Origin: Escherichia phage vB_EcoM_PTE-Eco09
Length of the DNA stretch: 64,000 nucleotides
Sequence record: PQ306574.1
Reading direction: 5' to 3' (one strand)
Shown: positions 20,849-64,000 of the stretch, piece by piece
How positions within the stretch are numbered: the stretch's first letter is position 1
Layout: each line of letters opens with the position of its first letter
Position numbers and translations under genes: made by a program
The notes under the pieces: generated by a model
What the model was told of the DNA's origin: nothing
The model's input: only the letters and a program-made list of their open reading frames with translations
Database searches by the model: none

Positions 20849-20891
20849 TTGACATACAAGGGAGATTCTCTATAATGGGAGTCTCCCTTTT
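20849..20891 (+). promoter_or_regulatory. sigma70-like promoter with the -10 element inside a GC-rich inverted repeat
   Basis: TTGACA-16 nt-TATAAT; GGGAGA...TCTCCC flank the -10, followed by TTTT. Confidence 0.5.
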
Positions 20892-20910
20892 CGTTTATGA
20901 GGATTTAATA

Positions 20911-21210
20911 ATGAGCAAAAAGAATAACATGATGATGAGTATGACAAAGTTCATGGAAGTAGACCTGATCAAAAATACAGTACAACATGAACGCCAGCGA
21001 GAAGCCGCAGTGATTGCAGAACAAGGTTTTCAGGTTATCCACAATCCACCTAAAGACACGGTTAAATCGAAATACAGAGACGATCTGAAAGACCATGAAG
21101 TACGGGAACTGGTTAATGATCTGCGTGACATTGCCATCAAATATCATGGTTATCAGTGCTTACGAGAACTGATCGCAGAGCGAGTAATGGATGCATTGAA
21201 AAAAGATTAA
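20911..21210 (+). CDS. hypothetical protein
   Basis: 99-aa ORF with RBS GAGGA. Confidence 0.45.
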   Translation: MSKKNNMMMSMTKFMEVDLIKNTVQHERQREAAVIAEQGFQVIHNPPKDTVKSKYRDDLKDHEVRELVNDLRDIAIKYHGYQCLRELIAERVMDALKKD

Positions 21211-21217
21211 AAATCTG

Positions 21218-21246
21218 TTGACACTGGATCGGGGATATATCATAAT
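21218..21246 (+). promoter_or_regulatory. sigma70-like early promoter
   Basis: TTGACA-17 nt-CATAAT; GGGGA...TCCCC flank the -10; CATCGAAAAC leader. Confidence 0.5.
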
Positions 21247-21267
21247 GTCCCCATCGAAAACAAAAGG

Positions 21268-21471
21268 TTGACTTATATGAAACCGTTTAAGAATGAAGAA
21301 ACTCAAAAATTTTGTGAAAAAATTGCAGAAATCTACTTGACAGGGGAGAAGGAAAAAGCTAATATTATGTTCAAAGAGTCAGTTTCCATGATGAAAGTAG
21401 CACGCTGGGAACTGATCGCAATGCAAGACCAAATTCGTTATCTAGTAACAAAGGAGAATCAAAATGCGTAA
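21268..21471 (+). CDS. hypothetical small protein
   Basis: 67-aa ORF. Confidence 0.4.
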   Translation: MTYMKPFKNEETQKFCEKIAEIYLTGEKEKANIMFKESVSMMKVARWELIAMQDQIRYLVTKENQNA

Positions 21472-21658
21472 CCATTACATCGAATTGGCAAGCCGTAAAG
21501 TTTCAGACCTGAAAGGCGTAATTGCTTACTATGAAGAAGTCCTGAAAAACGAAATTGCCGAGTGGGAACGTAAAGAATACAGCAAGTGCTTAGAGAAAAG
21601 CCGCGCTGAACTGGTTGACGCAGAAGCCCATCTGCAATGGGTAATTGAAAATGTATAA
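21464..21658 (+). CDS. hypothetical small protein
   Basis: 64-aa ORF. Confidence 0.4.
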   Translation: MRNHYIELASRKVSDLKGVIAYYEEVLKNEIAEWERKEYSKCLEKSRAELVDAEAHLQWVIENV

Positions 21659-21669
21659 GGAGTAGAAAA

Positions 21670-21927
21670 ATGAGTCGAAGTTTTGATTTTATGATCGCCA
21701 AGTGTCATCGAGAAAAGAAATCGATGGACCTGTTTATGAAATGTCTGAGATATGAATATGCGCACCTTCGTAAACACAAAATTGACCCGCAAGTTTCCTA
21801 CGAAAACATCAAGAAATATGCGAAAGAAGTGATTGACAACGATTGCACCGTGACATATAATGCGTTTATTGATTTATGGGCGTGGGATGTAATCTACGCA
21901 GAGATGGACAAAGAAGATTTTAATTAA
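21670..21927 (+). CDS. hypothetical small protein
   Basis: 85-aa ORF. Confidence 0.4.
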   Translation: MSRSFDFMIAKCHREKKSMDLFMKCLRYEYAHLRKHKIDPQVSYENIKKYAKEVIDNDCTVTYNAFIDLWAWDVIYAEMDKEDFN

Positions 21928-52228: not shown

Positions 52229-54472
52229 ATGATTAAAAATGTTGTTAAGTCTTCCGGTCTGACTGTTCCGTTTGAAAAAGAAAAAGTAATGAAAATTCTG
52301 GAAGCGGCAGCCGAAGGTCATAACGTTGATCCATATGAATTGTTTGATATGGTTGAACCACTTCTGACAGAAGGTATGTCTACCAATGATATCCAGAAAG
52401 TATTGATTAAGGTCGCCGCAGATAACATCACGGTAGAAACACCCGATTATCAATATGTAGCAAGTAACCTTGCAATGTTCGCGCTTCGTAAATCAGTATA
52501 CGGTCAATTCCAACCTATTGATTTTTATAGCCATATTGAGCGTAATATTGCAACCGGAAAATATGATCGCGAAATTCTGCAAAAATATTCCCGTGAAGAA
52601 GTGGAATATCTGGAGAAATTCATCGACCATAAACTTGATTTTAAAATGACCTATGCTGGTGCGATGCAGTTAAAAGAGAAATATCTTGTTCAGGATCGCA
52701 GCACTAAGAAAATCATCGAAACACCGCAATTTGCGTATATGCTGATCGGTATGTGCTTGCATCAAGAAGAGACCGAAAATCGACTTGAACATGTGATTGA
52801 TTTTTATAATGCGGTTGCGAATAAGCAAATCTCTCTGCCTACTCCGATTATGGCAGGTGTGCGTACCCCAACACGCCAATTTAGTTCGTGTGTGGTGATT
52901 GAAAGTGATGACTCATTGCAGGGTATTAATGAAACCGCAAATGCAATCATCAAGTATATTAGCAAGCGTGCTGGTATCGGTATCAACGCTGGCATGATTC
53001 GCGCGGAAGGATCTAAGATCGGGCATGGTGAAGTTCGTCATACTGGAGTTATCCCATTCTGGAAACATTTTCAGACTGCCGTTAAGTCATGCTCACAAGG
53101 CGGTATTCGTGGCGGGGCGGCGACTCTCTATTACCCAATGTGGCATTTAGAGTTTGAAAGTCTGATTGTGTTAAAGAACAATAAGGGGGTGGAAGATAAC
53201 CGCATTCGTCATCTTGATTACGGCGTACAGATTAATAACCTGATGGTAGAGCGATTCCTTAAACGGGATTACATTACTCTGTTTAGTCCAGATGTTGCAG
53301 GTGGCTTGTTGTGGGATCTATACTTCCGAGATGAGGAAGGTTTCCGCCAGCTTTACGAAAAACTGGAAAAAGATCCGAGTGTTCGTAAAACTCGTGTTAA
53401 AGCCGAAGACCTGTTTTTAGCGGTGGCAATTGAACGTTTTAACACTGGTCGAATCTACCCAACGTTCACAGACAACATGAACAATCACGGGGCGTTTATT
53501 CGTAATGTAGCACCGATTAAACAATCTAACCTGTGTTGTGAAATTGCTCTGCCAACAAAACCGATGGGTCGTGATGATTCAGAGATCAGCCTATGCACTT
53601 TGGCAGCATATGTTTTAGGTAATTTCGATATCGAAAATATGGAAGAAGTAGAACGCATTGCTATGGTTATGGTGCGTGCACTTGACAACCTGTTAGATTA
53701 TCAGGATTATCCTGTAGAACAAGCTCTGACAGCCAAAAAACGTCGCTCTCTGGGTGTTGGTGTGACTAACTTTGCATCGTATCTAGCAGATAATTTCTTC
53801 ACATATGAAGACGCTAGCGAGTTTACGCATAAAACGTTTGAACGCTTGCAATATGCTCTGATTAAGGCTAGTGTGCGACTGGCTAAAGAGAAGGGTGCTT
53901 GCGAACTGATGCACGAAACACGCTATGGTCGCGGTGAACTTCCTATCGACTGGTACAAAAAGACAGTAGATGAACTGGTTGATCCGGTGTATGAGATGGA
54001 TTGGGAAGAACTGCGCGAAGACCTGAAAAAATATGGCATTCGTAACAGTACGCTTTCGGCGCTGATGCCCTGTGAGTCATCTTCTCAGGTGTCTAACAGC
54101 ACAAACGGTATTGAACCGCCTCGCGGGATTGTATCGGTTAAAGGATCGAAAGAAGGGCAATTTAATCAGGTTATTCCGAACGTAGAGAATAATGCTGATG
54201 TTATTGACCTGCTTTGGACACTGATCAAGAAAGGTAACAAGCCCTATCTGACACTGGCAGCGATCATGCAGAAGTTTGTAGATCAGGCGATTAGTTCCAA
54301 TACATCCTATGATCCAAGCACTTATAAGACTGGTAAAGTCGATATTGCTGATGTGTTAGATGATATGTTGTTCGCTCAACATTACGGTCTGAAAACCCTG
54401 TATTATGCGAACGTTCGCGACGGTGCAGATGGTACGGAAGACGCTAGCGAGTGCTCATCTTGCAAGCTGTAA
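52229..54472 (+). CDS. nrdA: ribonucleotide reductase large subunit NrdA
   Basis: 747 aa; N-terminal ATP-cone, class I RNR core; C-terminal CSSCKL-type tail. Confidence 0.9.
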   Translation: MIKNVVKSSGLTVPFEKEKVMKILEAAAEGHNVDPYELFDMVEPLLTEGMSTNDIQKVLIKVAADNITVETPDYQYVASNLAMFALRKSVYGQFQPIDFYSHIERNIATGKYDREILQKYSREEVEYLEKFIDHKLDFKMTYAGAMQLKEKYLVQDRSTKKIIETPQFAYMLIGMCLHQEETENRLEHVIDFYNAVANKQISLPTPIMAGVRTPTRQFSSCVVIESDDSLQGINETANAIIKYISKRAGIGINAGMIRAEGSKIGHGEVRHTGVIPFWKHFQTAVKSCSQGGIRGGAATLYYPMWHLEFESLIVLKNNKGVEDNRIRHLDYGVQINNLMVERFLKRDYITLFSPDVAGGLLWDLYFRDEEGFRQLYEKLEKDPSVRKTRVKAEDLFLAVAIERFNTGRIYPTFTDNMNNHGAFIRNVAPIKQSNLCCEIALPTKPMGRDDSEISLCTLAAYVLGNFDIENMEEVERIAMVMVRALDNLLDYQDYPVEQALTAKKRRSLGVGVTNFASYLADNFFTYEDASEFTHKTFERLQYALIKASVRLAKEKGACELMHETRYGRGELPIDWYKKTVDELVDPVYEMDWEELREDLKKYGIRNSTLSALMPCESSSQVSNSTNGIEPPRGIVSVKGSKEGQFNQVIPNVENNADVIDLLWTLIKKGNKPYLTLAAIMQKFVDQAISSNTSYDPSTYKTGKVDIADVLDDMLFAQHYGLKTLYYANVRDGADGTEDASECSSCKL

Positions 54473-54480
54473 AATAAGTG

Positions 54481-54509
54481 TTGACGCGGGGAGAAATCCC
54501 CGCTATAAT
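54481..54509 (+). promoter_or_regulatory. sigma70-like early promoter with hairpin in the spacer
   Basis: TTGACG-17 nt-TATAAT; GCGGGGA-GAAA-TCCCCGC lies between -35 and -10. Confidence 0.5.
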
Positions 54510-54540
54510 ACAACCATCAAAAACAAGTGAGGATTTTATT

Positions 54541-54708
54541 ATGACCAAATTAAAATGTGTTGCTGTAGATTTTGAGCTAGCTGATAGCTTTGTTGTTGGT
54601 GATGAATATGATGCTCGACATGATGGGACTTGCTACTACGTCGAGGATGAATACGGTGTAGAATGGGCGATTCTTCCTGATGATAAATGTTTTGAGGTTG
54701 TCGGATAA
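54541..54708 (+). CDS. hypothetical small protein
   Basis: 55-aa ORF. Confidence 0.35.
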   Translation: MTKLKCVAVDFELADSFVVGDEYDARHDGTCYYVEDEYGVEWAILPDDKCFEVVG

Positions 54709-54881
54709 TGGCTACTGTATGGTTATTGATTGCAATAAGCAATTCAATGTATAATTACGGAAATATGTCAAGCATTGAGTTTGCAACAAAGCAGGATTGC
54801 GTTAAAGCTCGCGAGATTATCCGCGAAGACAATAAACGCTTTATGAATCTATATTGCGTTGAAAAACAAAAGGTGAACTAA
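54708..54881 (+). CDS. small hydrophobic-N-terminus protein (tandem paralog 1)
   Basis: 57 aa MATVWLLIAISNSMYNYGNMSSIEF...; TAATG overlap. Confidence 0.4.
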   Translation: MATVWLLIAISNSMYNYGNMSSIEFATKQDCVKAREIIREDNKRFMNLYCVEKQKVN

Positions 54882-55048
54882 TGGCTACATTATGGTTATT
54901 GCTTTCCGTTAGCGTAGGCGTATATAATAAAGGAACTGTTACCAGCGTAGAGTTTTCATCATATCAAAATTGTTTTGAAGCTGTGCAGGAATTGCAGCAG
55001 GATAGCGAAATAAACAGAAATACTAAGTTCTTTTGTGTTAAAAAGTGA
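54881..55048 (+). CDS. small hydrophobic-N-terminus protein (tandem paralog 2)
   Basis: 55 aa MATLWLLLSVSVGVYNKGTVTSVEF...; similar to the preceding ORF. Confidence 0.4.
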   Translation: MATLWLLLSVSVGVYNKGTVTSVEFSSYQNCFEAVQELQQDSEINRNTKFFCVKK

Positions 55049-55057
55049 TAGTGAGGT

Positions 55058-55117
55058 GAATTAATCCTTCTTCTGGATACCTGATAAATAATGGTATACA
55101 GAAAAGAGGATTAATTC
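55058..55117 (+). promoter_or_regulatory. RBS-sequestering inverted repeat with late-promoter-like element upstream of the mobE-like gene
   Basis: Perfect 11-bp inverted repeat GAATTAATCCT (55058-55068) / AGGATTAATTC (55107-55117); the 3' arm covers the RBS; loop contains GATAAATAAT. Confidence 0.55.
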
Positions 55118-55765
55118 ATGAACTTACAAAAACTACATGACGCAATCATAGAAAAAGCAAAGACGAGAGGAACCGTTGAAGGGTATAAGGAAACACATCA
55201 TATTTTACCGCGATCTATGGGTGGCGGTGATGAAGTTGATAACCTGATTGAGTTGACAGCAAAAGAACATTTCGTGATTCATCATCTGCTAGCAAAAATT
55301 CATGGTGGACCTATGGCACAAGCATTTGGTATGATGTGTTTAGCAAAAAATGCGAAGACCAATAAAAGAGATTATATTGTTTCGTCTAGGGTATATGAAC
55401 AAGCTAGGGTACTTATCTCTGAACAAAGAAAGGGCAAACCTATGAAAGAAGAAACGCGAAGAAAGATTAGCGAATCTTCGAAAGGTGTGTTGAAATCAGA
55501 AGAGACAAAAGCTAAAATGCGTAAGCCAAAAACAAAGGAGCACGCGTTAAACATTTCAAAAGCTAGAATGGGCAGTAAAAATCCTATGTTTGGGAAACCA
55601 TCGCCAACTAAAGGAATACCACATAGTGAGGAAATGAGAAAGCTGATTGCACAAAGGACAAAGGAAGCAACAATGGCAGATCCTTGTCCGCATTGCGGTA
55701 AAATTACCAATAAAGGCAATTCTCTACGATGGCACTTTGATAACTGTAAAATGAGGAATATGTGA
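55118..55765 (+). CDS. mobE: HNH homing endonuclease with NUMOD3-like repeats (MobE-like)
   Basis: HNH motif HHILPRSMGGGDEVDNLIELTAKEHFVIHH; repeated ...R.KIS.S.KG... NUMOD3-like units; located between nrdA and nrdB like T4 mobE. Confidence 0.75.
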   Translation: MNLQKLHDAIIEKAKTRGTVEGYKETHHILPRSMGGGDEVDNLIELTAKEHFVIHHLLAKIHGGPMAQAFGMMCLAKNAKTNKRDYIVSSRVYEQARVLISEQRKGKPMKEETRRKISESSKGVLKSEETKAKMRKPKTKEHALNISKARMGSKNPMFGKPSPTKGIPHSEEMRKLIAQRTKEATMADPCPHCGKITNKGNSLRWHFDNCKMRNM

Positions 55766-56932
55766 ATGGGAAATACGGTATTTAATCGTGAACACGTTGA
55801 TATTATGAATGAACCGATGTTTCTGGGCAGCGGTTTAGGTATCGCTCGTTATGACATTCAGCGTCATCAAGTATTTGAAGAATTAATTGAAAAATCTCTG
55901 TCATTTTTTTGGCGCCCCGAAGAAATTTCACTTGCAACCGACCGCATTCAATATCTTAATATGGGTGACGTTGAAAAGCGTTTCTTTACTGAAAACTTGA
56001 AGTATCAGACATTACTTGATTCTATTCAAGGTCGCGCACCGTCCGCAGCATTTGGTCCAATTGTATCTGATCCAACTCTCGATACATGGTTGCAAACATG
56101 GACATTCAGCGAAACGATTCATAGCCGAAGCTATACACACATTATGCGTAACTGTTTCATTGATCCGGCTAGTGAGTTCGACCAGATCATCGATAACCCT
56201 GCTATCATGAAGCGAGCGGAATCTATCGGGAAATATTATGATGATGTTCTTTATTGGATTCGTAAGTATGAGAATGCAAAAGAAGATCTCCGCTATTGGG
56301 AAGAACGAGACGACCAGACAGCATTAGATGATGCAAGAAGATTTTTTGAAGATACAAAACGAGATCTGATGGCTTCGATTTATCTGTGTGCACACTGCGT
56401 AAATGCACTGGAAGCAATCCGTTTTTATGTGTCCTTTGCATGTACTTTCAGCTTTGCCGAACGTGGTTTACTGGAAGGTAACGCGAAGATCATGAAATTT
56501 ATTGCGCGTGATGAACAACTTCACTTAAAAGGAACACAATACATTATTCGTCAATGGCAAACGGGGGTTGATGGTGATGAGTGGAAACAGATTGCGGAAG
56601 AACTTGAAGGCGAAGCAACGAAAATCTTTCTGGATGTTGTCGAGCAAGAAAAAGAATGGGTAGACCACCTATTCGCAATGGGGGCAATTCCTAACCTGTC
56701 ACCGGAAATTCTGAAAACCTATGTAGAATACCTGGCAGATTCCCGTATGCGTGCTGCCGGACTGAAAAGCCCGTTTAGTGTTCGTCGTCATCCGTTACCG
56801 TGGATGCGTAAATGGTTGAACTCTGACGAAGTACAGAATGCAGCGCAGGAAGTAGAGATTATGTATCTGGTATCTCAGGTTAATACCGATTTAACAGACG
56901 ACGACTACAACCGATTCGGGAAATATCTATGA
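55766..56932 (+). CDS. nrdB: ribonucleotide reductase small subunit NrdB (uninterrupted)
   Basis: 388 aa; di-iron ligand regions (SETIHSRSYTHI, EAIRFYVSF, DEQLHLKG); continuous ORF. Confidence 0.85.
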   Translation: MGNTVFNREHVDIMNEPMFLGSGLGIARYDIQRHQVFEELIEKSLSFFWRPEEISLATDRIQYLNMGDVEKRFFTENLKYQTLLDSIQGRAPSAAFGPIVSDPTLDTWLQTWTFSETIHSRSYTHIMRNCFIDPASEFDQIIDNPAIMKRAESIGKYYDDVLYWIRKYENAKEDLRYWEERDDQTALDDARRFFEDTKRDLMASIYLCAHCVNALEAIRFYVSFACTFSFAERGLLEGNAKIMKFIARDEQLHLKGTQYIIRQWQTGVDGDEWKQIAEELEGEATKIFLDVVEQEKEWVDHLFAMGAIPNLSPEILKTYVEYLADSRMRAAGLKSPFSVRRHPLPWMRKWLNSDEVQNAAQEVEIMYLVSQVNTDLTDDDYNRFGKYL

Positions 56933-57405
56933 TATATTTTGTCGATTTAGATTTTACGATCACAGATCCAACGCATCGACTAGCAAAGATGCCAACCGAA
57001 AATCTTGATAAAGTCGAGTCATGGATCGAATATAACAAAGCATGTGGGGGAGATTCCCCCATTTACGATGTAATTCGTGTTATTAATGCTCTTTCCGACA
57101 ACGGGCATTTGATTTACATCCTCACAGGACGAAGTTCACATGCTTACATGGAAACAATTGATTGGTTAATTTCTAACGGGGTGTGTTTTGATAAAATCTT
57201 TATGAGAGGCCGTACCGATTCCCGTAAAGACTATCACATCAAATTAGAGGTAATTAAATCCTTTGATAAAGATGAAGTTGTCGGAGTCTTTGAGGATAAC
57301 CCAGAAGTGATTAAAGTTTTGCGTGAAAATGGTTATCGTGTCTTTGACGTAGGAAATCACAAAGATAAGACGCGAGCGGATATTGCAAATCACGGTCATG
57401 ATTAA
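56929..57405 (+). CDS. HAD-superfamily phosphatase/nucleotidase-like protein
   Basis: HAD motif I FVDLDFTIT; later DN-type acidic motif; ATGA overlap with nrdB. Confidence 0.5.
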   Translation: MIYFVDLDFTITDPTHRLAKMPTENLDKVESWIEYNKACGGDSPIYDVIRVINALSDNGHLIYILTGRSSHAYMETIDWLISNGVCFDKIFMRGRTDSRKDYHIKLEVIKSFDKDEVVGVFEDNPEVIKVLRENGYRVFDVGNHKDKTRADIANHGHD

Positions 57406-57417
57406 TGTTTGTTCAAA

Positions 57418-57441
57418 GTCGCCCATAGTGGCGACTTTTTT
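57418..57441 (+). terminator. intrinsic terminator
   Basis: GTCGCC-CATAGT-GGCGAC followed by TTTTTTG. Confidence 0.7.
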
Positions 57442-57452
57442 GTTATTGGGTG

Positions 57453-57481
57453 TTGACAATCGGATCGGGGTATAGCATAAT
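57453..57481 (+). promoter_or_regulatory. sigma70-like early promoter
   Basis: TTGACA-17 nt-CATAAT, then GCACCCATCGAAACGGAGGA. Confidence 0.55.
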
Positions 57482-57505
57482 GCACCCATCGAAACGGAGG
57501 AACAT

Positions 57506-57724
57506 ATGGAAACAGAAGAACAAGTCATTGCATATTTTCATCGTAAAAAGATGAAACTTAGAATCGAAAAGCAGTACATCAATCACTACATTGACCGAGT
57601 TCACTTAACAAGTACACCTTACCTATTCCGGTTGATAAACCCTAGAAAACGGTGGGAGAAGTTGGATAGAAACACAAAAATAATTGATAAGCTCACCCAG
57701 TGGTGGAATGAATACAACAAGTAA
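57506..57724 (+). CDS. hypothetical small protein
   Basis: 72-aa ORF. Confidence 0.45.
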   Translation: METEEQVIAYFHRKKMKLRIEKQYINHYIDRVHLTSTPYLFRLINPRKRWEKLDRNTKIIDKLTQWWNEYNK

Positions 57725-57731
57725 AAAGTAG

Positions 57732-57766
57732 TTGACACTGAATAACTGGGGTAGTAAGATACTCCC
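57732..57766 (+). promoter_or_regulatory. sigma70-like early promoter with palindrome around the -10
   Basis: TTGACA-17 nt-TAAGAT; GGGGTAG-TAAGA-TACTCCC; CATCGAAACGAAACAAAGGAGAATCA leader. Confidence 0.55.
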
Positions 57767-57793
57767 ATCGAAACGAAACAAAGGAGAATCAAA

Positions 57794-58012
57794 ATGAAAT
57801 TTACTTGCACCGACTCTATCAGCAAGCACTTTGTAGTAGGCGAAGTATACGAATCTACTACCATTCGCCAGCGTGACCTGATGGGTCGCCTTTACAATCA
57901 GCCAGTATTCATTATTGGCGAAGAATTGTTCTACATTGAAAACCGTCCGTGGGTTGCTTTCAATAAACGAGGACGCAAGGTAGCAAAATTCGAACTTGTC
58001 ATTAAAAAGTAG
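57794..58012 (+). CDS. hypothetical small protein
   Basis: 72-aa ORF. Confidence 0.45.
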   Translation: MKFTCTDSISKHFVVGEVYESTTIRQRDLMGRLYNQPVFIIGEELFYIENRPWVAFNKRGRKVAKFELVIKK

Positions 58013-58047
58013 TTGACAGCATGAAACGGGGGTAGTAATATACCCCC
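58013..58047 (+). promoter_or_regulatory. sigma70-like early promoter with palindrome around the -10
   Basis: TTGACA-17 nt-TAATAT; perfect inverted repeat GGGGGTA-GTAATA-TACCCCC; CATCGAAACGAAA leader. Confidence 0.55.
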
Positions 58048-58079
58048 ATCGAAACGAAATACACTTTAAGGAGAATCAA

Positions 58080-58229
58080 ATGAACAACTTTGACGCGGTA
58101 CTGAAAATGGCAATCGAAACTTACGCGGAGATCTCCGGCGAGAAAGTAGAGGACATTATCAAAGAATGTCAGAACTTTGAAAGCCAGACAGCCAAGAATG
58201 TTCAAATGTTGATGTTTGCGGTTGCATAA
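58080..58229 (+). CDS. hypothetical small protein
   Basis: 49-aa ORF with RBS AGGAG. Confidence 0.4.
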   Translation: MNNFDAVLKMAIETYAEISGEKVEDIIKECQNFESQTAKNVQMLMFAVA

Positions 58230-58237
58230 AAAAGCAG

Positions 58238-58272
58238 TTGACAGCATATCACGGGAGTAGTAAGATACTCCC
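58238..58272 (+). promoter_or_regulatory. sigma70-like early promoter with palindrome around the -10
   Basis: TTGACA-17 nt-TAAGAT; GGGAGTA-GTAAGA-TACTCCC. Confidence 0.55.
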
Positions 58273-58299
58273 ATCCCAAAACAACTAAGGAGTATCAAG

Positions 58300-58698
58300 A
58301 TGATTAAATTTCAAACTCGCAAAGACGTTCTGGACTTCGTTAAAGTTTTCGGTTACGCTGCATTGCAACATGCAATGGACAAAATGACCATCTCCCCAGA
58401 TCAGACTATGCTGATCCGTATGGTTAAAGCAACCGCCTACAAAAACGACATTACCCTCTCAGAAATCAACGACGGTAATACTGTCCGCGAGGTAATTGTT
58501 TCTTTCGAATCACCGAAAATTGGAGGTTTTCATACCACGATGTTAGGTGAAATCACTGTCACTGTATACGGGCAAGGTGGCGGAGTGTTTACCGTCAAAG
58601 AAGCAATGGAAAACGGAACACTGAACAAAGAAAAACTGGAATTTGTCCTGAAAATCATCAATGAGCGTAACGAAGCTCGCGATATTCTGGAAAGTTAA
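58300..58698 (+). CDS. hypothetical protein
   Basis: 132-aa ORF with RBS AGGAG. Confidence 0.5.
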   Translation: MIKFQTRKDVLDFVKVFGYAALQHAMDKMTISPDQTMLIRMVKATAYKNDITLSEINDGNTVREVIVSFESPKIGGFHTTMLGEITVTVYGQGGGVFTVKEAMENGTLNKEKLEFVLKIINERNEARDILES

Positions 58699-58705
58699 TA
58701 AGGTG

Positions 58706-58730
58706 GGCGGGAGAAATCCCGCCTTTGTTG
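58706..58730 (+). terminator. intrinsic terminator
   Basis: GGCGGGA-GAAA-TCCCGCC followed by TTTGTTG. Confidence 0.6.
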
Positions 58731-58748
58731 TGACGTGAGGAAAGGATA

Positions 58749-59210
58749 ATGATTAATGAGCTAATAGAAAACTATGGATTCGTTAAATATTCATGTTTAG
58801 AGTGTAAAGATGGTGACGTGATTCTACCGCCTCAGAAGAACCGTTTAAATGTTCTTTACGCTATTTCGGTTGATGATGAACTGGTATACATTGGTCAGAC
58901 TGTCAATCTCAGAAAGCGGATCAATTATTAACGGACTAGCATTAACAGACAAACACCAACAGCGGATACTCGCAAGAGTAAGAATATTCATAAGGCGCTA
59001 GAGGAAGGTAAGACAGTAACATTCTATTACCGCCAGTGCTTTGAGTTATATATTGAGAATCCAACGGGTAAAGATATTATAAGCACTGCCGATATCGAAG
59101 AACCTGTTTTGATCACCAAATTTAAACCAGAATGGAACACAAATTATGTCAACAAAAGAAAACAACAAAAAAGTTTTAGCATTGTTCAAAAATCTGATGG
59201 CACTATGTGA
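58749..59210 (+). pseudogene. GIY-YIG nuclease-like reading frame interrupted by an in-frame TAA (58929-58931)
   Basis: N-terminal VLYAISVDDELVYIGQTVNLRKRI (GIY...YIG...R); the same frame continues after the TAA through ...EEPVLITKFKPEWNTNY and overlaps the rnlA start. Confidence 0.5.
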
Positions 59211-60315
59211 CGGATCTGATACGTTCTATTACAAAGATGAAATTACGGCGATGCAAACCCGTATGCGCATTTTTAGCTATCTGTACTTGAGCAAACCTGA
59301 AATGTGGAATAAACCAGATGCGTTAGAGTGTCGCGGGATCATGTTTGAAATTGACGATAAAGGTCGTCCGGTCCGCATCGCATCTCGTCCTATGGAGAAG
59401 TTTTTTAATTTGGGTGAGAATGATCGCGCTCGCTTTAAGCCGGAAGATGTGGAAATGGTCATGGACAAAATGGACGGTAGTCTAGTAAGCACATACATTG
59501 ATAACGGCTATGTTCAGTTGAAGTCTAAAGCGGCCTTGTACTCAAGCCAGGCAGAGAGAGCAAACGGTCTTCTGTATTCAGAGAAGTATGCGGATCTACG
59601 CGCTAAGATTGCTGATATTGGGTCTGATTATACTTTCAACTTTGAATATACAGCGCCCAGCAACCGAATTGTTGTAGAATATTCTGAACCGTCGCTAACA
59701 CTTCTGAATGTACGCCATAACGTCACAGGAGAGTACGTACCGCATCAAATGCTATTTTCTGACGCAATCCTACGTCCTCATCTGGTAAATGCGTTACAGG
59801 TTGATTCAGCGCGTTTTAGCAATATTCTTGATGAAGTTCGGACCGCAGAAGGTATCGAAGGAATTGTTGCACGCACTAAAGACGGTCAAATGTTCAAAGT
59901 GAAGAGTGAATGGTATATTGGTGTGCATAACATTAAAAACACATCGATGTTTCCTAATAACCTGATCTACTATGTCGTAGAAAGCGAAACCGATGATTTG
60001 CGTGCTGCATATGAAGGCGAACCGGAAGCACTGGAACGAATCGAGCTATTCGAGGAAGCATTCAGGTCTATTCTTCGCAATGCCTTCACGACAGCAACAG
60101 AATTTTATAACGCACACGCGGGAGAAGACAGAAAGACATATGCATCAAATGCGACTATCGAATCACGTAAACATGGTGATGCACAAGCATATATTTTCAT
60201 GTGTCTGATGATTGCATTTGATGGTCTTGATTATGACCGTATTCTGGATTCAATGAAAACTTACTATCTACGGAATTATAAGAAACTTATTCCGGCTGAT
60301 AAGATTGATTGGTAA
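59146..60315 (+). CDS. rnlA: RNA ligase 1 (gene 63-type)
   Basis: 389 aa; LECRGIMFE, IASRPMEKFFNL, KMDGSLVS, FEYTAPSNRIV match remembered T4 Rnl1. Confidence 0.9.
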   Translation: MSTKENNKKVLALFKNLMALCDGSDTFYYKDEITAMQTRMRIFSYLYLSKPEMWNKPDALECRGIMFEIDDKGRPVRIASRPMEKFFNLGENDRARFKPEDVEMVMDKMDGSLVSTYIDNGYVQLKSKAALYSSQAERANGLLYSEKYADLRAKIADIGSDYTFNFEYTAPSNRIVVEYSEPSLTLLNVRHNVTGEYVPHQMLFSDAILRPHLVNALQVDSARFSNILDEVRTAEGIEGIVARTKDGQMFKVKSEWYIGVHNIKNTSMFPNNLIYYVVESETDDLRAAYEGEPEALERIELFEEAFRSILRNAFTTATEFYNAHAGEDRKTYASNATIESRKHGDAQAYIFMCLMIAFDGLDYDRILDSMKTYYLRNYKKLIPADKIDW

Positions 60316-60321
60316 TAATAA

Positions 60322-60344
60322 GCGGGGCTAGTTCCCCGCCTTTT
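60322..60344 (+). terminator. intrinsic terminator after rnlA
   Basis: GCGGGG-CTAGTT-CCCCGC followed by CTTTTG. Confidence 0.6.
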
Positions 60345-60359
60345 GTCGTTGGGGGTAAT

Positions 60360-60683
60360 ATGTCAAAGCTGATATACATTGTTATCATCTCTGTGTTGCT
60401 AGGGGTAGGTGGTAATATGTGGTGGGAAAATAAAAAGGAGGTAGATCGACTGAATCAGGAATTTACAGAGTATAAGAAAAAGACAGATGAAAAGATGAAG
60501 GTCGTAGACTCACTACAAAAGGAGATGTACGGAATAAGAACTAAGTTTGCAGAAGAACAAAACAAAGCAATGAAAGACGCTACACGAGGCTATGTAGTAG
60601 CACAAAAACCAAAGTTGGTAGAGAAACAGCTTAATGATTCATTTAAGGAGTTTACCGAAGAATTAAAGGAGGCTACTAAATGA
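60360..60683 (+). CDS. putative i-spanin (N-terminal TM plus coiled coil)
   Basis: 107 aa; TM LIYIVIISVLLGVGGNMWW then charged coiled coil; directly upstream of pseT, like T4 pseT.3. Confidence 0.55.
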   Translation: MSKLIYIVIISVLLGVGGNMWWENKKEVDRLNQEFTEYKKKTDEKMKVVDSLQKEMYGIRTKFAEEQNKAMKDATRGYVVAQKPKLVEKQLNDSFKEFTEELKEATK

Positions 60684-60799
60684 GCATAGAAATATTGCCT
60701 ACACAAGAGCAGATAAGCAATTTTAATCTGGTTGATTATCTGTGGATAGGTGCAAGCATTATTATCCTGATGGTGTTTTCAATTTTCGTGATACACTGG

Positions 60800-61132
60800 A
60801 TGTTTAAGAAAGCACATAAGAATTTTCAGACCTCCATAATCCATGTCTTCGCTTTGCCTATTGTATTTGCGCTTTCTTCGTGTACAATGGACCATTATTC
60901 ACAGGAACCGAAAGTACATCCTCCACTACCAGCACCAATAGAAAAAGTTGACATTGACCTGAAAGTGGATACAATAGACGGTAAACCTAGAGTTTCTATG
61001 TCGTGGGAGGACTCCCAAAAATTCAGAGTCTGGCTTGCGGATATTAAGAGATATACACTTGAAAGTAAGTTGATCATGTGTTATTATCGAAAAGAACTTA
61101 ATGAGGAACGGTGCAAACCGAAGGAGAAATAA
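60800..61132 (+). CDS. putative o-spanin lipoprotein (in-frame start within track ORF 60680-61132)
   Basis: MFKKAHKNFQTSIIHVFALPIVFALSSC looks like a lipoprotein signal with a lipobox; TAATG overlap with pseT. Confidence 0.45.
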   Translation: MFKKAHKNFQTSIIHVFALPIVFALSSCTMDHYSQEPKVHPPLPAPIEKVDIDLKVDTIDGKPRVSMSWEDSQKFRVWLADIKRYTLESKLIMCYYRKELNEERCKPKEK

Positions 61133-62010
61133 TGCCGAAATGTGAAGTGATTTTAACCGTTGGTTGTTCTGGGTCCGGTAAAACTACATGGGCGATGGAA
61201 ACATGTAAACGGTTTAGTAATTATCGTAATGTGAATCGTGATGATCTTCGTCTTATGTTGTTTGGTGTTGACTCACATTTGAAATACAAGTATACTAAGG
61301 AAAAAGAAAAGCTGGTAGAGTCTATTCAGAGAATGATTGCTCGTGAGACTCTATCACGCGGATTGAGTATCATTATCTCCGATACCAACCTGAAAGAAAA
61401 ACATCGTGTATTCTACAAAGAACTTGCAAAAGAATTTAACGCGGTGTATACTGAACAAGTGTTCAATGAATCATTTGAGACACTAAAGAAACGTAATTTC
61501 TATCGCGGTGAGAAAGCAATTCCACTTTCTCATTTGCGCAACCAATTTTATCTGATGCAGGAATATATGGGTCAAGAAGTATACAAACCGAATACCATGC
61601 TGCCAAAGGCAGTGATCTTTGATATTGATGGGACATTAGCGGATAAGGGCGGTCGTCATCCGTTTGACTGGACAAAGGTCAAAGAAGATAAACCTCGTCC
61701 GCAAGTGGTCGAAATGCTTAAACTGTATCGTGATAATGGTTATCGTATCATTACATGCTCAGGGCGTGAGGATGTTTGCGAAGAAGATACTCTGCAATGG
61801 TTGCGTGAACAGGGTATTGAACCGAGTGATCACTTTCAACGTGAAACTAATGATCGTCGTCCTGATCATGAAGTGAAGAAAGAGATCTTCTTCTCTGAAA
61901 TTGCACCGCGTTATCATGTTGTTTTGGCGGTAGATGACCGTGATCAAGTGGTTGACATGTATCGCTCAATTGGTGTAGAATGTTTTCAGGTTAACTACGG
62001 AGACTTTTAA
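61132..62010 (+). CDS. pseT: polynucleotide 5'-kinase/3'-phosphatase
   Basis: Walker A GCSGSGKTTWA; HAD phosphatase motif VIFDIDGTLA; C-terminus IGVECFQVNYGDF matches remembered T4 Pnk. Confidence 0.9.
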   Translation: MPKCEVILTVGCSGSGKTTWAMETCKRFSNYRNVNRDDLRLMLFGVDSHLKYKYTKEKEKLVESIQRMIARETLSRGLSIIISDTNLKEKHRVFYKELAKEFNAVYTEQVFNESFETLKKRNFYRGEKAIPLSHLRNQFYLMQEYMGQEVYKPNTMLPKAVIFDIDGTLADKGGRHPFDWTKVKEDKPRPQVVEMLKLYRDNGYRIITCSGREDVCEEDTLQWLREQGIEPSDHFQRETNDRRPDHEVKKEIFFSEIAPRYHVVLAVDDRDQVVDMYRSIGVECFQVNYGDF

Positions 62011-62213
62011 TGTTTACCGATAAACTCAAGCAATTAGGCGAAGCACTTGCTAAACGTGGTTTTAGTGTTGATATTGAACCAGCGCCAGTTATGCCGTTTA
62101 GCGATGAACGTCGCAGTGTATATGTCATCATGAGAAATAATCATGGTGTGAATACATTCAATGTAAAACAGTATAGCGACGGATCAGTAGAATACTTTCG
62201 CGTATACGGTTAA
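62010..62213 (+). CDS. hypothetical small protein
   Basis: 67-aa ORF, TAATG overlap with pseT. Confidence 0.4.
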   Translation: MFTDKLKQLGEALAKRGFSVDIEPAPVMPFSDERRSVYVIMRNNHGVNTFNVKQYSDGSVEYFRVYG

Positions 62214-62234
62214 TTAATATGTGAGGATTATATT

Positions 62235-62741
62235 ATGTTGTCACAAACTTACATGCAGATCGCCTATCTGATCGCAAAGAACTCTAAATGTGTTTCGTGG
62301 AAGGTAGGCGCACTGATCGAAAAAGACGGGCGAATCATTTCTACTGGATTTAACGGAACTCCAGCAGGGCAAGTAAATTGTAGCTGTCATGCACATAAAA
62401 ACGGTTGGCTGGATGATGACGGCAAAATGATCCCAGAAAAACGACCAGAGCATAGTGCATGGTCACAGAAAAACGAGATCCACGCTGAATTAAATGCTAT
62501 TTTGTTTGCTGCCCGTAGCGGTGTATCGATTGAAGGCGCTAGTATGTGGTGTACTGCTTCACCGTGTCCAGATTGCGCTAAAGCAATTGCAAACAGTGGA
62601 ATTAAATATCTATACTATTGCGACACATATGATCGAAATGGTGGGCGTGATTGGGCTGATATTCTGAATAATGCAGATATTACAATCACGCGTATTCCAA
62701 AAGCATTATTGACTGATTTGAAGGGTATTGATAATGACTGA
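62235..62741 (+). CDS. cd: dCMP deaminase
   Basis: Zinc-binding deaminase motifs HAELNAI and CTASPCPDCAKAI; 168 aa. Confidence 0.85.
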   Translation: MLSQTYMQIAYLIAKNSKCVSWKVGALIEKDGRIISTGFNGTPAGQVNCSCHAHKNGWLDDDGKMIPEKRPEHSAWSQKNEIHAELNAILFAARSGVSIEGASMWCTASPCPDCAKAIANSGIKYLYYCDTYDRNGGRDWADILNNADITITRIPKALLTDLKGIDND

Positions 62742-63048
62742 ACAAGTTGATAATATCGCACTTCGTGAAGCACTAAAGAAAATGTTTTCGGTCGGTACTC
62801 ACTCTTTTCAGTTTACTAAGAAAGATGGTACTGTCCGTGAGATGATCGCCACGCGAGATCCGGCACTGATGCCGTTTGAAACATACGAAAAGTGGTTAGT
62901 TCCGAATGTTGAAAAACCGCGTAAAGAATCAGAAACATCTTTGCCAGTATATGAAATTGCAGTTGAAGGTTTCCGTAGTTTTGGGCTTGATAGTCTGATT
63001 AATGTAGACGGGCTGACTCCAGCGCAGATCGTCGAAATTTATAAATAA
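62728..63048 (+). CDS. hypothetical protein
   Basis: 106-aa ORF. Confidence 0.45.
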   Translation: MIMTEQVDNIALREALKKMFSVGTHSFQFTKKDGTVREMIATRDPALMPFETYEKWLVPNVEKPRKESETSLPVYEIAVEGFRSFGLDSLINVDGLTPAQIVEIYK

Positions 63049-63089
63049 TTCATCATTAAACTGTATTGATTTGAAGAGGTAATAAAATT

Positions 63090-63413
63090 ATGACCGTTAA
63101 AACTCCTAAAGCACTTGGTGACTATGTGATCATTGAAGCTAAAGCAGAAAGCGCAGGGACAGAAGTAAAAAGCTCTATGGGGATCATTATTGAGCAAAAG
63201 CGCACTATGGGCGAGATTCCGCTGGTAGGTAAGATTATTGATATCGGTGAAACGGTAGATAAAGAATTGCTGGGTAAAACTGTTTTACTGCCACATGGCA
63301 AGATGAATAAAGTTCCTCATCCAGACGTTATTAACGGCGTTAAGAAGGAAGAAGAGATCGACCTGAAATGGACTGTAACACACAAACAGAATATTGTGGT
63401 AGTTTACGGTTAA
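63090..63413 (+). CDS. 31: GroES-like co-chaperonin (gp31-like)
   Basis: 107 aa; GDYVIIEA...GIII...VGKIIDIG...VLLPHGKMNKVPHPDV fits a GroES/gp31-like pattern; position after cd as in T4. Confidence 0.55.
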   Translation: MTVKTPKALGDYVIIEAKAESAGTEVKSSMGIIIEQKRTMGEIPLVGKIIDIGETVDKELLGKTVLLPHGKMNKVPHPDVINGVKKEEEIDLKWTVTHKQNIVVVYG

Positions 63414-63423
63414 TGATTTTAAA

Positions 63424-63449
63424 CGGCGGGAAATAATCCCGCCTATATT
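63424..63449 (+). terminator. intrinsic terminator
   Basis: GGCGGGA-AATAA-TCCCGCC followed by TATATTTT. Confidence 0.55.
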
Positions 63450-63495
63450 TTGGCTATATGATTTTGTAAGTTATTGATTATTAAGGAATTTTATT

Positions 63496-63660
63496 ATGAA
63501 AACTATGAATGTAAACATCCACGAAATCCATACCGAAGTATTCACCGAAGAAGACCAGTTTGGTGTATGGGTAAATCCTCATTCGATTACTATCGATATT
63601 CCTAATGACGATTATGATCCGTTCTCTCTGATTAGCGAGATTAGTTTTAATGACTTCTGA
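63496..63660 (+). CDS. hypothetical small acidic protein
   Basis: 54-aa ORF. Confidence 0.35.
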   Translation: MKTMNVNIHEIHTEVFTEEDQFGVWVNPHSITIDIPNDDYDPFSLISEISFNDF

Positions 63661-64000
63661 AATTGATATCTATGCGGGTGGACCTTATCCATCGGGTGAA
63701 TTGAGTAATTTCAATAAAAGACCATTCCGTCTATTTGGTTGCGATATTAACAGCACAGAAGGATTTTTACAGGGGCTAAGATTTAAGAACCCTCAGAGAC
63801 AAAGAGAAATCTTTTTGATGCACGGTGGCAAAGCAAAAAGAACCGGAAGAACTGAAAAGATTGAGAATCACCTGTTATATTTTCAGGGTCGCCAGATTCA
63901 TCGAATGAGTGAGCATTATTACAGACTGGTACATCTGGCATTTGTTACGATGGCACGGAATAACCCAGAATTTTGTAAAGCATTACTCGCTACCGGAAAT
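63650..64000 (+). CDS. NADAR/YbiA-like domain protein (3' end outside window)
   Basis: GGPYPSGELSNF, STEGFLQGLRF, KAKRTGR, ALLATGN resemble the NADAR pattern; ORF runs off the window end. Confidence 0.45.
   Translation, partial: MTSEIDIYAGGPYPSGELSNFNKRPFRLFGCDINSTEGFLQGLRFKNPQRQREIFLMHGGKAKRTGRTEKIENHLLYFQGRQIHRMSEHYYRLVHLAFVTMARNNPEFCKALLATGN

Follow-up and report, generated by a model that had tools for sequence, protein, structure and literature searches.

Four small genes behind four promoter units: a probable tandem array of PeSL cassettes in an RB49-like T4-type phage

Introduction

The interval from 57,418 to 58,272 in a 64,000-nucleotide stretch of Escherichia phage vB_EcoM_PTE-Eco09 (record PQ306574.1; this whole stretch is referred to below as the window) is very probably a tandem array of four promoter-early stem-loop (PeSL) cassettes in an RB49-like T4-type phage. 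PeSLs were defined in RB49 and phi1 (Arbiol, Comeau, Kutateladze, Adamia, Krisch 2010, Genome Biol Evol 2:140), with about 51 in RB49 (PMC2839356), and the array is a clear example of this described mechanism rather than a new one. The interval combines a promoter, an AT-rich tract with a stop codon, a stem-loop, and a Shine-Dalgarno sequence with the start of an ORFan, and its relatives carry indels with chimeric junctions. PeSL arrays are among the few concrete mechanisms proposed for the gain and loss of small accessory genes in large lytic phages. The locus described here is a compact natural data set, comprising four cassettes, at least three independent precise deletions of readable direction, one JSE-type event that is a loss or a gain, one replacement, and mapped crossovers.

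Organization of the Locus

The window comes from a T4-type coliphage of the RB49-like group (Krischvirus), and the segment 57000-59200 is covered to at least 80%, at 95-99% identity, in 55 of the 58 matching phage records, all of which are RB49-like or Krischvirus. In the RB49 annotation, ORFs 225-228 sit between a phosphatase gene and denA; the locus belongs to the nucleotide-metabolism block (nrdB to denA), outside the main hyperplastic region. The window carries homologs of RB49 ORFs 228, 227, 226, and 225, in that order, and canonical intrinsic terminators flank the array at both ends (Table 1), the first of which closes the upstream transcription unit. A terminator scan of the locus reported only these two flanking elements (57415-57438 and 58705-58724). 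In the record of phage GEC-3S the same four promoters, complete with -35 and -10 signals, are already marked, as are terminators at both ends. The first-pass annotation, made from the window alone, had placed promoter cassettes at 57453, 57732, 58013, and 58238, each followed by a short ORF (72, 72, 49, and 132 aa), and all of these features were recovered at those positions.

Table 1. Features of the array and its flanks, with positions in the window
Feature	Coordinates	Strand	Details
Terminator after phosphatase gene (RB49 ORF229 homolog)	57415..57444	+	9-pair stem AAAGTCGCC/GGCGACTTT, then T-run TTTGTTATTG; from fold; annotated in GEC-3S
Unit 1, PeSL before ORF228	57453..57505	+	-35 TTGACA 57453-57458; -10 CATAAT 57476-57481; marginal stem 57468-57487; predicted +1 A at 57488; 18-nt leader with GGAGG
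ORF228 homolog	57506..57724	+	72 aa, basic, pI 9.9; phrog_18672 (unknown function)
Unit 2, PeSL before ORF227	57725..57793	+	A-rich tract after ORF228 stop TAA (57722-57724); -35 57732-57737; -10 TAAGAT 57755-57760; stem-loop 57747-57766; predicted +1 57767; Shine-Dalgarno AAGGAG
ORF227 homolog	57794..58012	+	72 aa, basic, pI 9.7; phrog_14957
Unit 3, PeSL before ORF226	58003..58079	+	-35 58013-58018, abutting ORF227 stop codon TAG; -10 TAATAT 58036-58041; stem 58028-58047; predicted +1 58048; Shine-Dalgarno AAGGAG
ORF226 homolog	58080..58229	+	49 aa, acidic, pI 4.4; phrog_21179
Unit 4, PeSL before ORF225	58228..58299	+	-35 58238-58243; -10 TAAGAT 58261-58266; stem 58253-58272; predicted +1 58273; Shine-Dalgarno AAGGAG
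ORF225 homolog	58300..58698	+	132 aa; phrog_10173
Terminator closing the array	58705..58734	+	GGGCGGGA/TCCCGCCT, then TTTGTTG; -16.9 kcal/mol, z -3.0; annotated in GEC-3S

All four units hold a near-consensus sigma-70 promoter, with TTGACA at -35, a 17-bp spacer, and the -10 hexamers given in Table 1. In units 2-4 an AT-rich tract (gTAAaaagtagTTGACA, attaaaaagTAGTTGACA, and caTAAaaaagcagTTGACA, respectively) includes or borders on the stop codon of the preceding gene, whereas unit 1 is preceded by the T-run of the terminator. Downstream of the stem the leader begins with ATCGAAAC (ATCCCAAA in unit 4); it is short and is followed by a strong Shine-Dalgarno sequence, GGAGG or AAGGAG, 6-8 nt before each of the four ATGs, and by one small ORF. 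Units 2-4 are three copies of one 79-nt direct repeat, 75-76% identical and spaced 281 and 225 bp apart; the exact words common to the units are only 12-19 nt long.

Loss and Replacement of Single Cassettes

Among the 58 Krischvirus records, 40 have all four cassettes, 13 are without ORF226, 2 are without ORF227, and 3 have ORF228 replaced, so that 18 of the 58 differ by whole cassettes. The suggestion that these are one-gene modules is therefore borne out, as the units prove separable, and the interval is not invariant across related phages, a result that the first-pass annotation had named as contrary to its reading. Every junction, whether in ELT3, AV108, phiS, the JSE-type genomes, or E26/ELT4, lies within a promoter unit, and the junction sequences are chimeric units. 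The 281 bp missing from ELT3 equal exactly the period from unit 2 to unit 3, and JSE and UPWr_E1 lack 217 bp. The ELT3 sequence also contains several homopolymer indels. The crossover points are at the -35 box in phiS, in the leader in the JSE-type genomes, at the stem and -10 in ELT3, and at the Shine-Dalgarno sequence in AV108; because they differ between lineages, the losses are considered recurrent. As read from these alignments, ORF226 and ORF227 each appear to have been removed precisely at least two times, with differing crossover points, the JSE-type event being a loss or a gain.

The direction of change can be read where phiS, ELT3, and AV108 nest among full-array genomes, which makes them deletions, and at least three independent precise deletions are thus indicated. 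The proposal that the modules were serially inserted is not borne out by these events; incoming DNA is seen only in the E26/ELT4 replacement. Here, in the E26/ELT4/011D4 group, a foreign two-ORF module takes the place of ORF228, and both E26/ELT4 junctions lie inside units. The module occurs in those three records only, and no homolog of it was found in the window or in the RB49 stretches compared. There is also patchy conversion between units, in that the spacers of units 2 and 3 are identical in Phi1, GEC-3S, and E26. In the window, the spacer and discriminator of unit 1 (ggggtatag...gcaccc) form a patch that is unlike RB49 (ttgccatag...acgcac) and the same as E26.

None of the cassettes turned up elsewhere: in all Krischvirus records listed, each ORF matches one place only, which in those genomes that were examined is the present locus. 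Because each cassette is found at one locus only, the "mobile, reinsertable" half of the PeSL model appears to be without support here. In addition, about 50 bp is cited as needed for efficient T4 homologous recombination (PMC2839356), and because the 12-19 nt exact words of the units fall short of this, the deletions could arise by replication slippage, not by reciprocal mini-circle exchange. This leads to a possible, though rather unlikely, account in which the units are plain strong early promoters with a shared leader and the losses are slippage or illegitimate deletion between short repeats, with no cassette mechanism or mini-circle, the hairpin mattering only by stalling replication. The shortness of the shared words, the fact that all events of readable direction are deletions, the confinement of each cassette to one locus, and a slippage-like 12-nt tandem duplication beside the stem of AV108 unit 4 are all consistent with it. 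However, the E26/ELT4 replacement imports foreign DNA with both junctions within units, the conversion between units in Phi1, GEC-3S, and E26 is patchy, and mini-circles have been detected experimentally at other PeSL pairs (PMC2839356), which argues for the cassette reading. Of the two products of the mini-circle model, a circle with one ORF and one chimeric unit and its reciprocal, the precise deletion, only the deletion is seen at this locus. It should be noted that slippage bears on the recombination step alone and does not call the anatomy of the units into question.

Stem-Loops over the -10 Box

The inverted repeat keeps one register relative to the -10 box: its 5' arm occupies -20 to -14 within the spacer, and its 3' arm (-7 to -1) takes in the final base of the -10 hexamer together with the discriminator, leaving the remaining -10 bases in the loop. 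A palindrome of the GGGAGTA/TACTCCC type had been claimed for three units, and the claim stands in full for two of them. The palindrome is a perfect 7 bp in unit 4 (GGGAGTA/TACTCCC; -13.1 kcal/mol, z -2.7, 0 of 200 shuffles as good) and in unit 3 (GGGGGTA/TACCCCC; -14 kcal/mol, z -2.0), whereas unit 2 (TGGGGTA/TACTCCC) forms 6 of 7 pairs, including one G.T, and at -8.1 kcal/mol (z 0.23) is no better than shuffles in the window. Unit 1 has only a marginal stem that barely pairs. The hairpin is thus not essential to every unit, being weakened in unit 2 and barely pairing in unit 1 in the window. The stems of units 3 and 4 fit the PeSL subclass "overlapping the -10 box" (PMC2839356).

Across 16 Krischvirus sources, all seven pairs are kept in one register by 13 distinct unit sequences. 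One stem pair varies as A-T, G.T, or G-C and never as A.C, a count that is descriptive only, since the variants are a few linked haplotypes, in which -10 type and stem type go together, and represent few independent events. TTGACA sites without a recognisable unit mostly form 0-4 of the 7 pairs in the same register, with 5 at the site inside an ORF at 21337. No U-tract of the kind that marks an intrinsic terminator stands right after the -10 stems, where CCCAUCGAAAC (CAUCGAAAC or CAUCCCAAA) follows, and classical intrinsic termination at these stems is therefore doubtful. The stem of PeSL211/210, GGGGAT-cacgt-ATCCCC followed by TATACTAC, is likewise without a U-run; it cut lacZ expression as much as rrnB T1 did and is the sole PeSL stem tested (PMC2839356). 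An Rfam search of 57300-58800 gave two sub-threshold chance matches only.

It would be improbable, on balance, that the inverted repeat is not an RNA hairpin but a DNA operator bound by a dimeric protein of the phage or the host, such as an early-promoter repressor or a recombination factor. The palindrome does span the -10 box and discriminator, a classic repressor position, its half-site GGGRGTA is fairly conserved, and the authors who described PeSLs themselves raise, as speculation, a DNA-binding protein with GGGG...CCCC as its target (PMC2839356). However, the PeSL subclasses have loops of 3, 5, 6, 8, and 11 nt and stems placed between the boxes or over the -10, a variation in arm spacing and position that a fixed dimer would not tolerate. 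Moreover, no candidate regulator was identified, and the sense strand has three G.T or U.G wobbles and no A.C, a hint of single-strand pairing, albeit three versus zero is not significant. The operator was provisionally rejected.

A further idea, which we consider very improbable, is that the G/C hairpin at the -10 is more than an RNA attenuator and acts as a DNA-level signal, the non-template strand forming a hairpin or cruciform, for a dedicated phage protein or for junction-cleaving recombination machinery. The arrays would then amount to integrase-free, integron-like capture and shedding of genes in a lytic phage, and would have left their mark here in the recurrent precise losses and the replacement. 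Neither RB49 nor phi1 has an identified integrase (PMC2839356).

Promoter Activity and Proposed Mechanism

The window contains 16 matches to TTGACA-N17-TAADAT with at most one mismatch, where 2.65 would be expected; every one is on the + strand, and none of 100 shuffles yielded as many. A broader promoter scan of the window gave 38 sites on the + strand and none on the - strand. The array at 57453-58238 is the densest cluster of such promoters in the window, as had been proposed; the only comparable stretch, 20849-21833, has four matches in 984 bp, two of which (21337 and 21833) are apparently within ORFs. The four promoters are kept across the full-array genomes examined, with one GEC-3S unit having TTTACA at -35. 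It is hardly conceivable that the arrangement is a functionless chance cluster of consensus-like hexamers: a general scan of the AT-rich 54000-64000 does yield many weak matches (37 versus 27 expected), but the four sites are top-scoring, share the 79-nt homology, lie between genes just upstream of a Shine-Dalgarno sequence and ATG, are all on the coding strand, are conserved in relatives, and are annotated as promoters in GEC-3S, and chance was rejected on the excess and strand bias of the matches, the repeat homology, and the conservation.

Host RNA polymerase would fire all four predicted promoters immediately after infection, as the consensus match and published assays of other PeSLs suggest, and each small gene would thus have its own early promoter. 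Promoter activity in vivo has been published only for PeSL193/192 and PeSL206/205, the latter giving about 13,000 Miller units (PMC2839356). Less firmly, because a transcript from the unit's own promoter is predicted to start past the 3' arm, that RNA would be without the hairpin, which would form only in RNA read through from an upstream unit. In such read-through RNA the hairpin may attenuate or process the transcript and so partly insulate each gene. The similarity of about 80 nt between units serves, in addition, as a crossover site, as the natural variants show.

Relation to Known Systems

The closest counterparts are the PeSLs of RB49 and phi1 (PMC2839356; Comeau et al. 2014, PMC4122927), which come from the same phage group and have the same anatomy: an AT-rich tract with the upstream stop, a TTGACA-N17-TATAAT-like promoter, a G(n)-loop-C(n) stem over the -10, a 3' end carrying an ORFan's Shine-Dalgarno sequence and ATG, and indels with chimeric-unit junctions. 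The units in the window are orthologous to the ones that precede RB49 ORFs 228-225 and show no difference in kind. RB49 and phi1, the pair compared in PMC2839356 and PMC4122927, both carry all four cassettes, which explains why the locus is not among the examples of these papers, and neither text names it. What the present comparison adds is the recurrent, independent loss of ORF226 and ORF227 and the replacement of ORF228 across 58 genomes. The first-pass annotation did not recognise the published PeSL element (PMC2839356).

In the account of Repoila et al. (1994) given in PMC2839356, the early promoters and IP-locus repeats of T4 resemble these units in being strong and early with an A-rich upstream tract, and in fronting small non-essential genes in regions that are variable among relatives. 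Its authors give the T4-type early consensus as TTTACW...TAYWAT, with weaker, AT-rich stems, whereas the RB49-type is near-perfect sigma-70 with G/C stems (PMC2839356).

Integron gene cassettes have as their hallmarks an attC site, a tyrosine-recombinase integrase, and one shared Pc promoter. Like them, the present cassettes are tandem one-gene units excised singly, and the PeSL model invokes a circular intermediate; unlike them, they have no attC-like site, and each has its own promoter in place of a single Pc. Morons, reportedly described by Hendrix and colleagues in 2000, are said to be single genes, each with a promoter and a terminator of its own, that have been inserted between others in a phage genome. 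The likeness lies in units that each join a single gene to a promoter and in dispensable, patchily distributed genes. In contrast to morons, it is here the regulatory sequence itself that is repeated and acts as crossover site, the cassettes point in the same direction as their neighbours, and the stems are not canonical terminators. The same distinction between PeSLs and morons is made by the PeSL authors (PMC2839356).

The Four Small Genes

Although synonymous sites make up only about 20% of the total, most changes in each of the four ORFs are synonymous, and the four are real protein-coding genes under purifying selection. ORF226, ORF227, and ORF228 are individually dispensable genes that are predicted to be early. 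The four are related neither to one another nor to anything else in the window. Pfam gave nothing above noise and NCBIfam nothing, PHROGs returned unknown-function families only, a PDB sequence search gave no match, and the only matches in a word-indexed protein search were relatives sharing at least 90% identity. The first-pass annotation had suggested host-takeover or anti-defence genes, a role for which the predicted early sigma-70 promoters and the dispensability are the sole support. A literature search found no paper naming ORFs 225-228, and one on Krischvirus early promoters gave nothing new.

The genes had also been expected to be lineage-specific, which holds for two of them. ORF228 (55 of 58 records; replaced in the E26/ELT4/011D4 group) and ORF227 (56 of 58; absent from ELT3 and AV108) are confined to Krischvirus. 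By contrast, Cronobacter phage CSP1 (62% identity) and Aeromonas phage 56 have homologs of ORF226, which is missing from 13 of the 58 Krischvirus records, and ORF225 is present in all 58 records and in 71 other large phages, jumbo and other myoviruses, at about 32-38% identity. The promoter does not travel with the gene in the homologs inspected: that of ORF226 in CSP1 is translationally coupled inside an operon, and those of ORF225 in PBECO4 and ChuuTotoro have their own, different upstream regions.

The four ORFs are reasonable candidates for an accessory-gene screen, while knowledge of the mechanism is unchanged by them. The predicted structure of ORF225 matched none of the solved structures with which it was compared, and an exhaustive HMMER search of 1.84 billion proteins returned 16 representatives, all of about 130 aa and none annotated. 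This protein, kept in every genome and common to unrelated jumbo phages, is confidently predicted to adopt an alpha/beta fold (pLDDT 92.9).

Organization of the Array

Between a HAD-type phosphatase gene and denA, the interval 57406-58748 consists of four units of one common design, each preceding a small ORF, and a canonical intrinsic terminator lies at either end. The first-pass annotation had described four promoter cassettes here, and this observation is accurate, as the positions listed below indicate.

Features of the cassette array and its flanks in the window
Feature	-35	-10	Predicted +1	Coordinates	Product or remark
Phosphatase gene				56929-57405	Pfam HAD_PNKP, E 2.9e-13
Intrinsic terminator				57415-57438	upstream end of array
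Unit 1	TTGACA 57453	CATAAT 57476	57488	ORF 57506-57724	ORF228, 72 aa
Unit 2	TTGACA 57732	TAAGAT 57755	57767	ORF 57794-58012	ORF227, 72 aa
Unit 3	TTGACA 58013	TAATAT 58036	58048	ORF 58080-58229	ORF226, 49 aa
Unit 4	TTGACA 58238	TAAGAT 58261	58273	ORF 58300-58698	ORF225, 132 aa
Intrinsic terminator				58705-58724	downstream end of array
denA				58749-59213	endonuclease II

The spacer is 17 bp in all four units, and every ORF has a Shine-Dalgarno (SD) sequence, GGAGG or AAGGAG, 6-8 nt 5' of its ATG. Units 2-4 form a 79-nt direct-repeat family (75-76% identity; start-to-start distances of 281 and 225 bp) in which the stop codon of the upstream gene lies in or against an A-rich tract immediately 5' of the -35 box, while exact words common to the units are only 12-19 nt long.

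Across the window, TTGACA-N17-TAADAT (at most one mismatch) occurs 16 times vs 2.65 expected, a count reached by none of 100 shuffles, and all 16 sites are on the + strand. A broader scan of the whole 64 kb (perfect TTGACA, 16-18 bp spacer, at least 4/6 in the -10) returned 38 sites on the + strand and 0 on the - strand, a bias that fits a single long early-gene block with one transcription direction. The densest cluster of such sites is units 1-4, with four within 786 bp. Another small group of units with promoter and stem, 5' of short ORFs, occupies 20849-21290; the unit at 20849 has a GGGAGA/TCTCCC stem with a T-run, and that at 21218 a different 8-bp stem, GGGGATAT/ATGTCCCC. The word CATCGAAAC occurs seven times on the + strand vs 0.79 expected (sites include 48021, 57487, 57766, and 58047), at least four times at the predicted +1 of an early promoter, where it forms a conserved leader start. 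In addition, the same arrangement, TTGACA-N17-TAANAT-N6-ATCGAAAC, is found without a G/C stem in at least seven viral contigs from IMG/VR that seem to lie outside Krischvirus (among loci L007-L011, L013, and L016-L018 of the comparison).

Relationship to Known PeSL Elements

Matches to the region come from 58 phage records, every one RB49-like (Krischvirus, Straboviridae); in 55 of them coverage of 57000-59200 is 80% or more, at 95-99% identity. The RB49 names of the four ORFs are RB49p228, p227, p226, and p225. The GEC-3S record is already annotated with the same four promoters (-35/-10 signals) and both flanking terminators. Motifs of this kind, some 51 in RB49 and 52 of them in phi1, were named promoter-early stem-loops, or PeSLs (Arbiol et al., 2010; PMC2839356). 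In that study, PeSL206/205 had very strong promoter activity, the PeSL211/210 stem lowered lacZ expression about as much as did rrnB T1, and PCR gave evidence of mini-circles from recombination between adjacent PeSLs (PMC2839356). PeSL211/210 in RB49 is TTGACAGGGGATcacgtATCCCCtaTACTAC, with a short G/C stem and no U-run, and the hairpin in the published test was therefore of the type found in the present units.

Units 1-4 show every sequence-level character of the PeSL family, and all four cassettes are present in both RB49 and phi1; neither PeSL paper (PMC2839356, PMC4122927) names the array locus or phage JSE. Elements of this kind have been described before, and the modular reading is essentially the published PeSL model. 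What our analysis adds is evidence at a single locus that cassettes have been lost repeatedly and independently, together with a map of the crossover points.

Cassette-Wise Variation and Its Junctions

Cassette states were scored in 58 Krischvirus records, including some RefSeq/GenBank duplicates, with per-ORF tblastn as a cross-check, and the interval proved to vary, whereas invariance among related phages was what the first-pass annotation had named as refuting its reading. All four cassettes are present in 40 records (among them RB49, Phi1, GEC-3S, and the window), ORF226 is missing from 13 (including JSE, ECD7, Brandy, Whisky, G2494, Skers, JK32, phiS, UPWr_E1, SSG23, SFHK24), ORF227 is missing from two (ELT3, AV108), and ORF228 is replaced in three (E26, ELT4, 011D4). 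The earlier reading as one-gene modules is supported by natural variation at this one locus, which is cassette-wise, with junctions inside units. ORF226-228 each match a single place per listed Krischvirus record, with no reinsertion seen elsewhere, and in the genomes examined that place is the array locus.

The junctions differ from case to case. ELT3 lacks 281 bp, exactly the period from unit 2 to unit 3, and its single chimeric unit joins the -35 and spacer of unit 2 to the -10, stem, and leader of unit 3. In AV108 (289 bp missing) the crossover lies farther downstream, at the SD, so that a leader of unit 2 type precedes the ORF226 ATG. In phiS (224 bp missing) it lies in the -35 box, fusing the upstream tract of unit 3 to the spacer of unit 4, and in JSE, UPWr_E1, and JK32 (217 bp missing) it lies in the leader. 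The foreign module that replaces ORF228 is ~400 bp with two 55-aa ORFs (ELT4 locus L026, 1310-1654; E26 locus L004, 1500-2011); it starts directly after 'catcgaaac' of unit 1 and ends at a different unit, TTGACAcacattaggg[a/g]gtattgCATAATactccc, 5' of ORF227. No homologs of these two ORFs were found in the window or in phage records beyond the E26/ELT4/011D4 group. Both are unannotated in the E26 record.

Patchy conversion is seen in the unit 3 spacer, which reads 'gcatgaaac' in the window, RB49, ELT4, and UPWr_E1 and 'ctgaataac', the unit 2 spacer, in Phi1, GEC-3S, and E26. The spacer and discriminator of unit 1 (57466-57487) differ from RB49 (locus L001, 3454-3490) in one patch, ggggtatag...gcaccc vs ttgccatag...acgcac; the window has the E26 version, a near match to phiS, and because this patch resembles the unit at 21218, gene conversion between distant units is suggested.

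Trees of the two flanks and of ORF225 are mutually discordant, and the genomes are therefore mosaics. Since phiS, ELT3, and AV108 are placed among full-array genomes, each of the three has lost its cassette by a derived deletion; the JSE-type genomes may have undergone a loss or may preserve the arrangement that preceded a gain. The deletions may have arisen by reciprocal exchange with release of a mini-circle or by slippage between the 12-19-nt repeats, as the sequence fits either. The AV108 unit before ORF225 (locus L023, ~1740-1800) is rearranged, gcagTTGGGGAGTAGTAAGATACTTAGTAAGATACTCCC, with a 12-nt tandem duplication of TAGTAAGATACT and loss of the -35 and spacer, which could reflect hairpin slippage or misassembly.

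The Stem-Loop and Its Possible Role

The palindrome has a single fixed register, with the 5' arm at -20 to -14, the 3' arm at -7 to -1 (last T of the -10 through the discriminator), and the remainder of the -10 hexamer as the loop. Stems are predicted for unit 4 (GGGAGTA/TACTCCC, -13.1 kcal/mol, z -2.7) and unit 3 (GGGGGTA/TACCCCC, -14 kcal/mol, z -2.0); unit 2 of the window has lost the first pair (TGGGGTA vs RB49 GGGGGTA) and is no more stable than its shuffles, and the stem of unit 1 is marginal. Full 7/7 pairing in this register is retained by 13 distinct unit sequences from the window and 15 Krischvirus loci, and TTGACA sites without a recognizable unit mostly have 0-4/7 (the in-ORF site at 21337 has 5). 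The fourth pair is A-T in four distinct sequences, G.T in three, G-C in seven, and never A.C, and the alternative unit of E26/ELT4 has unchanged arms and an 8-nt loop. Pairing thus appears to be maintained, with support that is descriptive and not statistical proof because the variants fall into few linked haplotypes.

The unit anatomy, inter-unit homology, bracketing terminators, and cassette-wise polymorphism with junctions inside units are directly observed, as is purifying selection on the ORFs. Host sigma-70 polymerase probably fires all four promoters early, judging from the consensus match and the published assays on other PeSLs. Because the predicted +1 is directly 3' of the 3' arm, the unit's own transcript does not include the 5' arm, and hairpin formation is therefore possible only in upstream read-through RNA or single-stranded DNA. 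Hairpins may act on read-through transcripts, insulating each gene. Classical intrinsic termination at the stems is doubtful, since sequence and terminator scans and folding found no U-run after those of units 1-4.

The Four ORFs

All four ORFs are real genes under purifying selection: in most comparisons with seven related sequences, codon changes are more often synonymous than not (a few pairs with low counts are ties), even though synonymous sites amount to only ~20%, no relative has an internal stop, and the SD sites are strong. As viable phages lacking each have been isolated, ORF226, ORF227, and ORF228 are each probably dispensable on the isolation host.

ORF227 (56/58 records) and ORF228 (55/58) are confined to Krischvirus, and ORF226 (45/58) is also found in Cronobacter CSP1 (62%) and Aeromonas phage 56. 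ORF225 is present in all 58 records and, at ~32-38% identity, in 71 other phages (Asteriusvirus and other jumbo phages, RaK2-like phages, Vequintavirinae, and one Acinetobacter phage). The PeSL promoter unit is absent upstream of the distant homologs examined; it is the gene that travels, with its promoter supplied locally. In the unrelated jumbo phage PBECO4 (locus L021, 585-675), the ORF225 homolog has its own promoter-like site, CTTGCA-17-TATAAT, and a leader with a G/C stem, GAGGGGGA/CTCCCTC, 3' of it, a PeSL-like layout outside T4-like phages.

The first-pass annotation had regarded the interval as a likely place for host-takeover or anti-defence genes; Pfam, NCBIfam, PHROGs, and PDB sequence searches returned no function for any of them. 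The pI is basic for ORF228 (9.9) and ORF227 (9.7) and acidic for ORF226 (4.4). The ORF225 family is small and phage-only (16 representatives among 1.84 billion proteins), with conserved residues including F17, G18, D58-G59-N60, and A102. Its confidently predicted fold (pLDDT 92.9) has no meaningful match among solved structures and only uncharacterized relatives in BFVD.

The Neighboring denA Gene

In ELT3, denA is frameshifted, which may be a sequencing error because this record has several homopolymer indels. In the window, codon 61 (58929-58931) is an in-frame TAA, and denA therefore looks inactivated in this genome; the codon is TAC in RB49, JSE, E26, UPWr_E1, and GEC-3S (RINYY to RINY* in the window).
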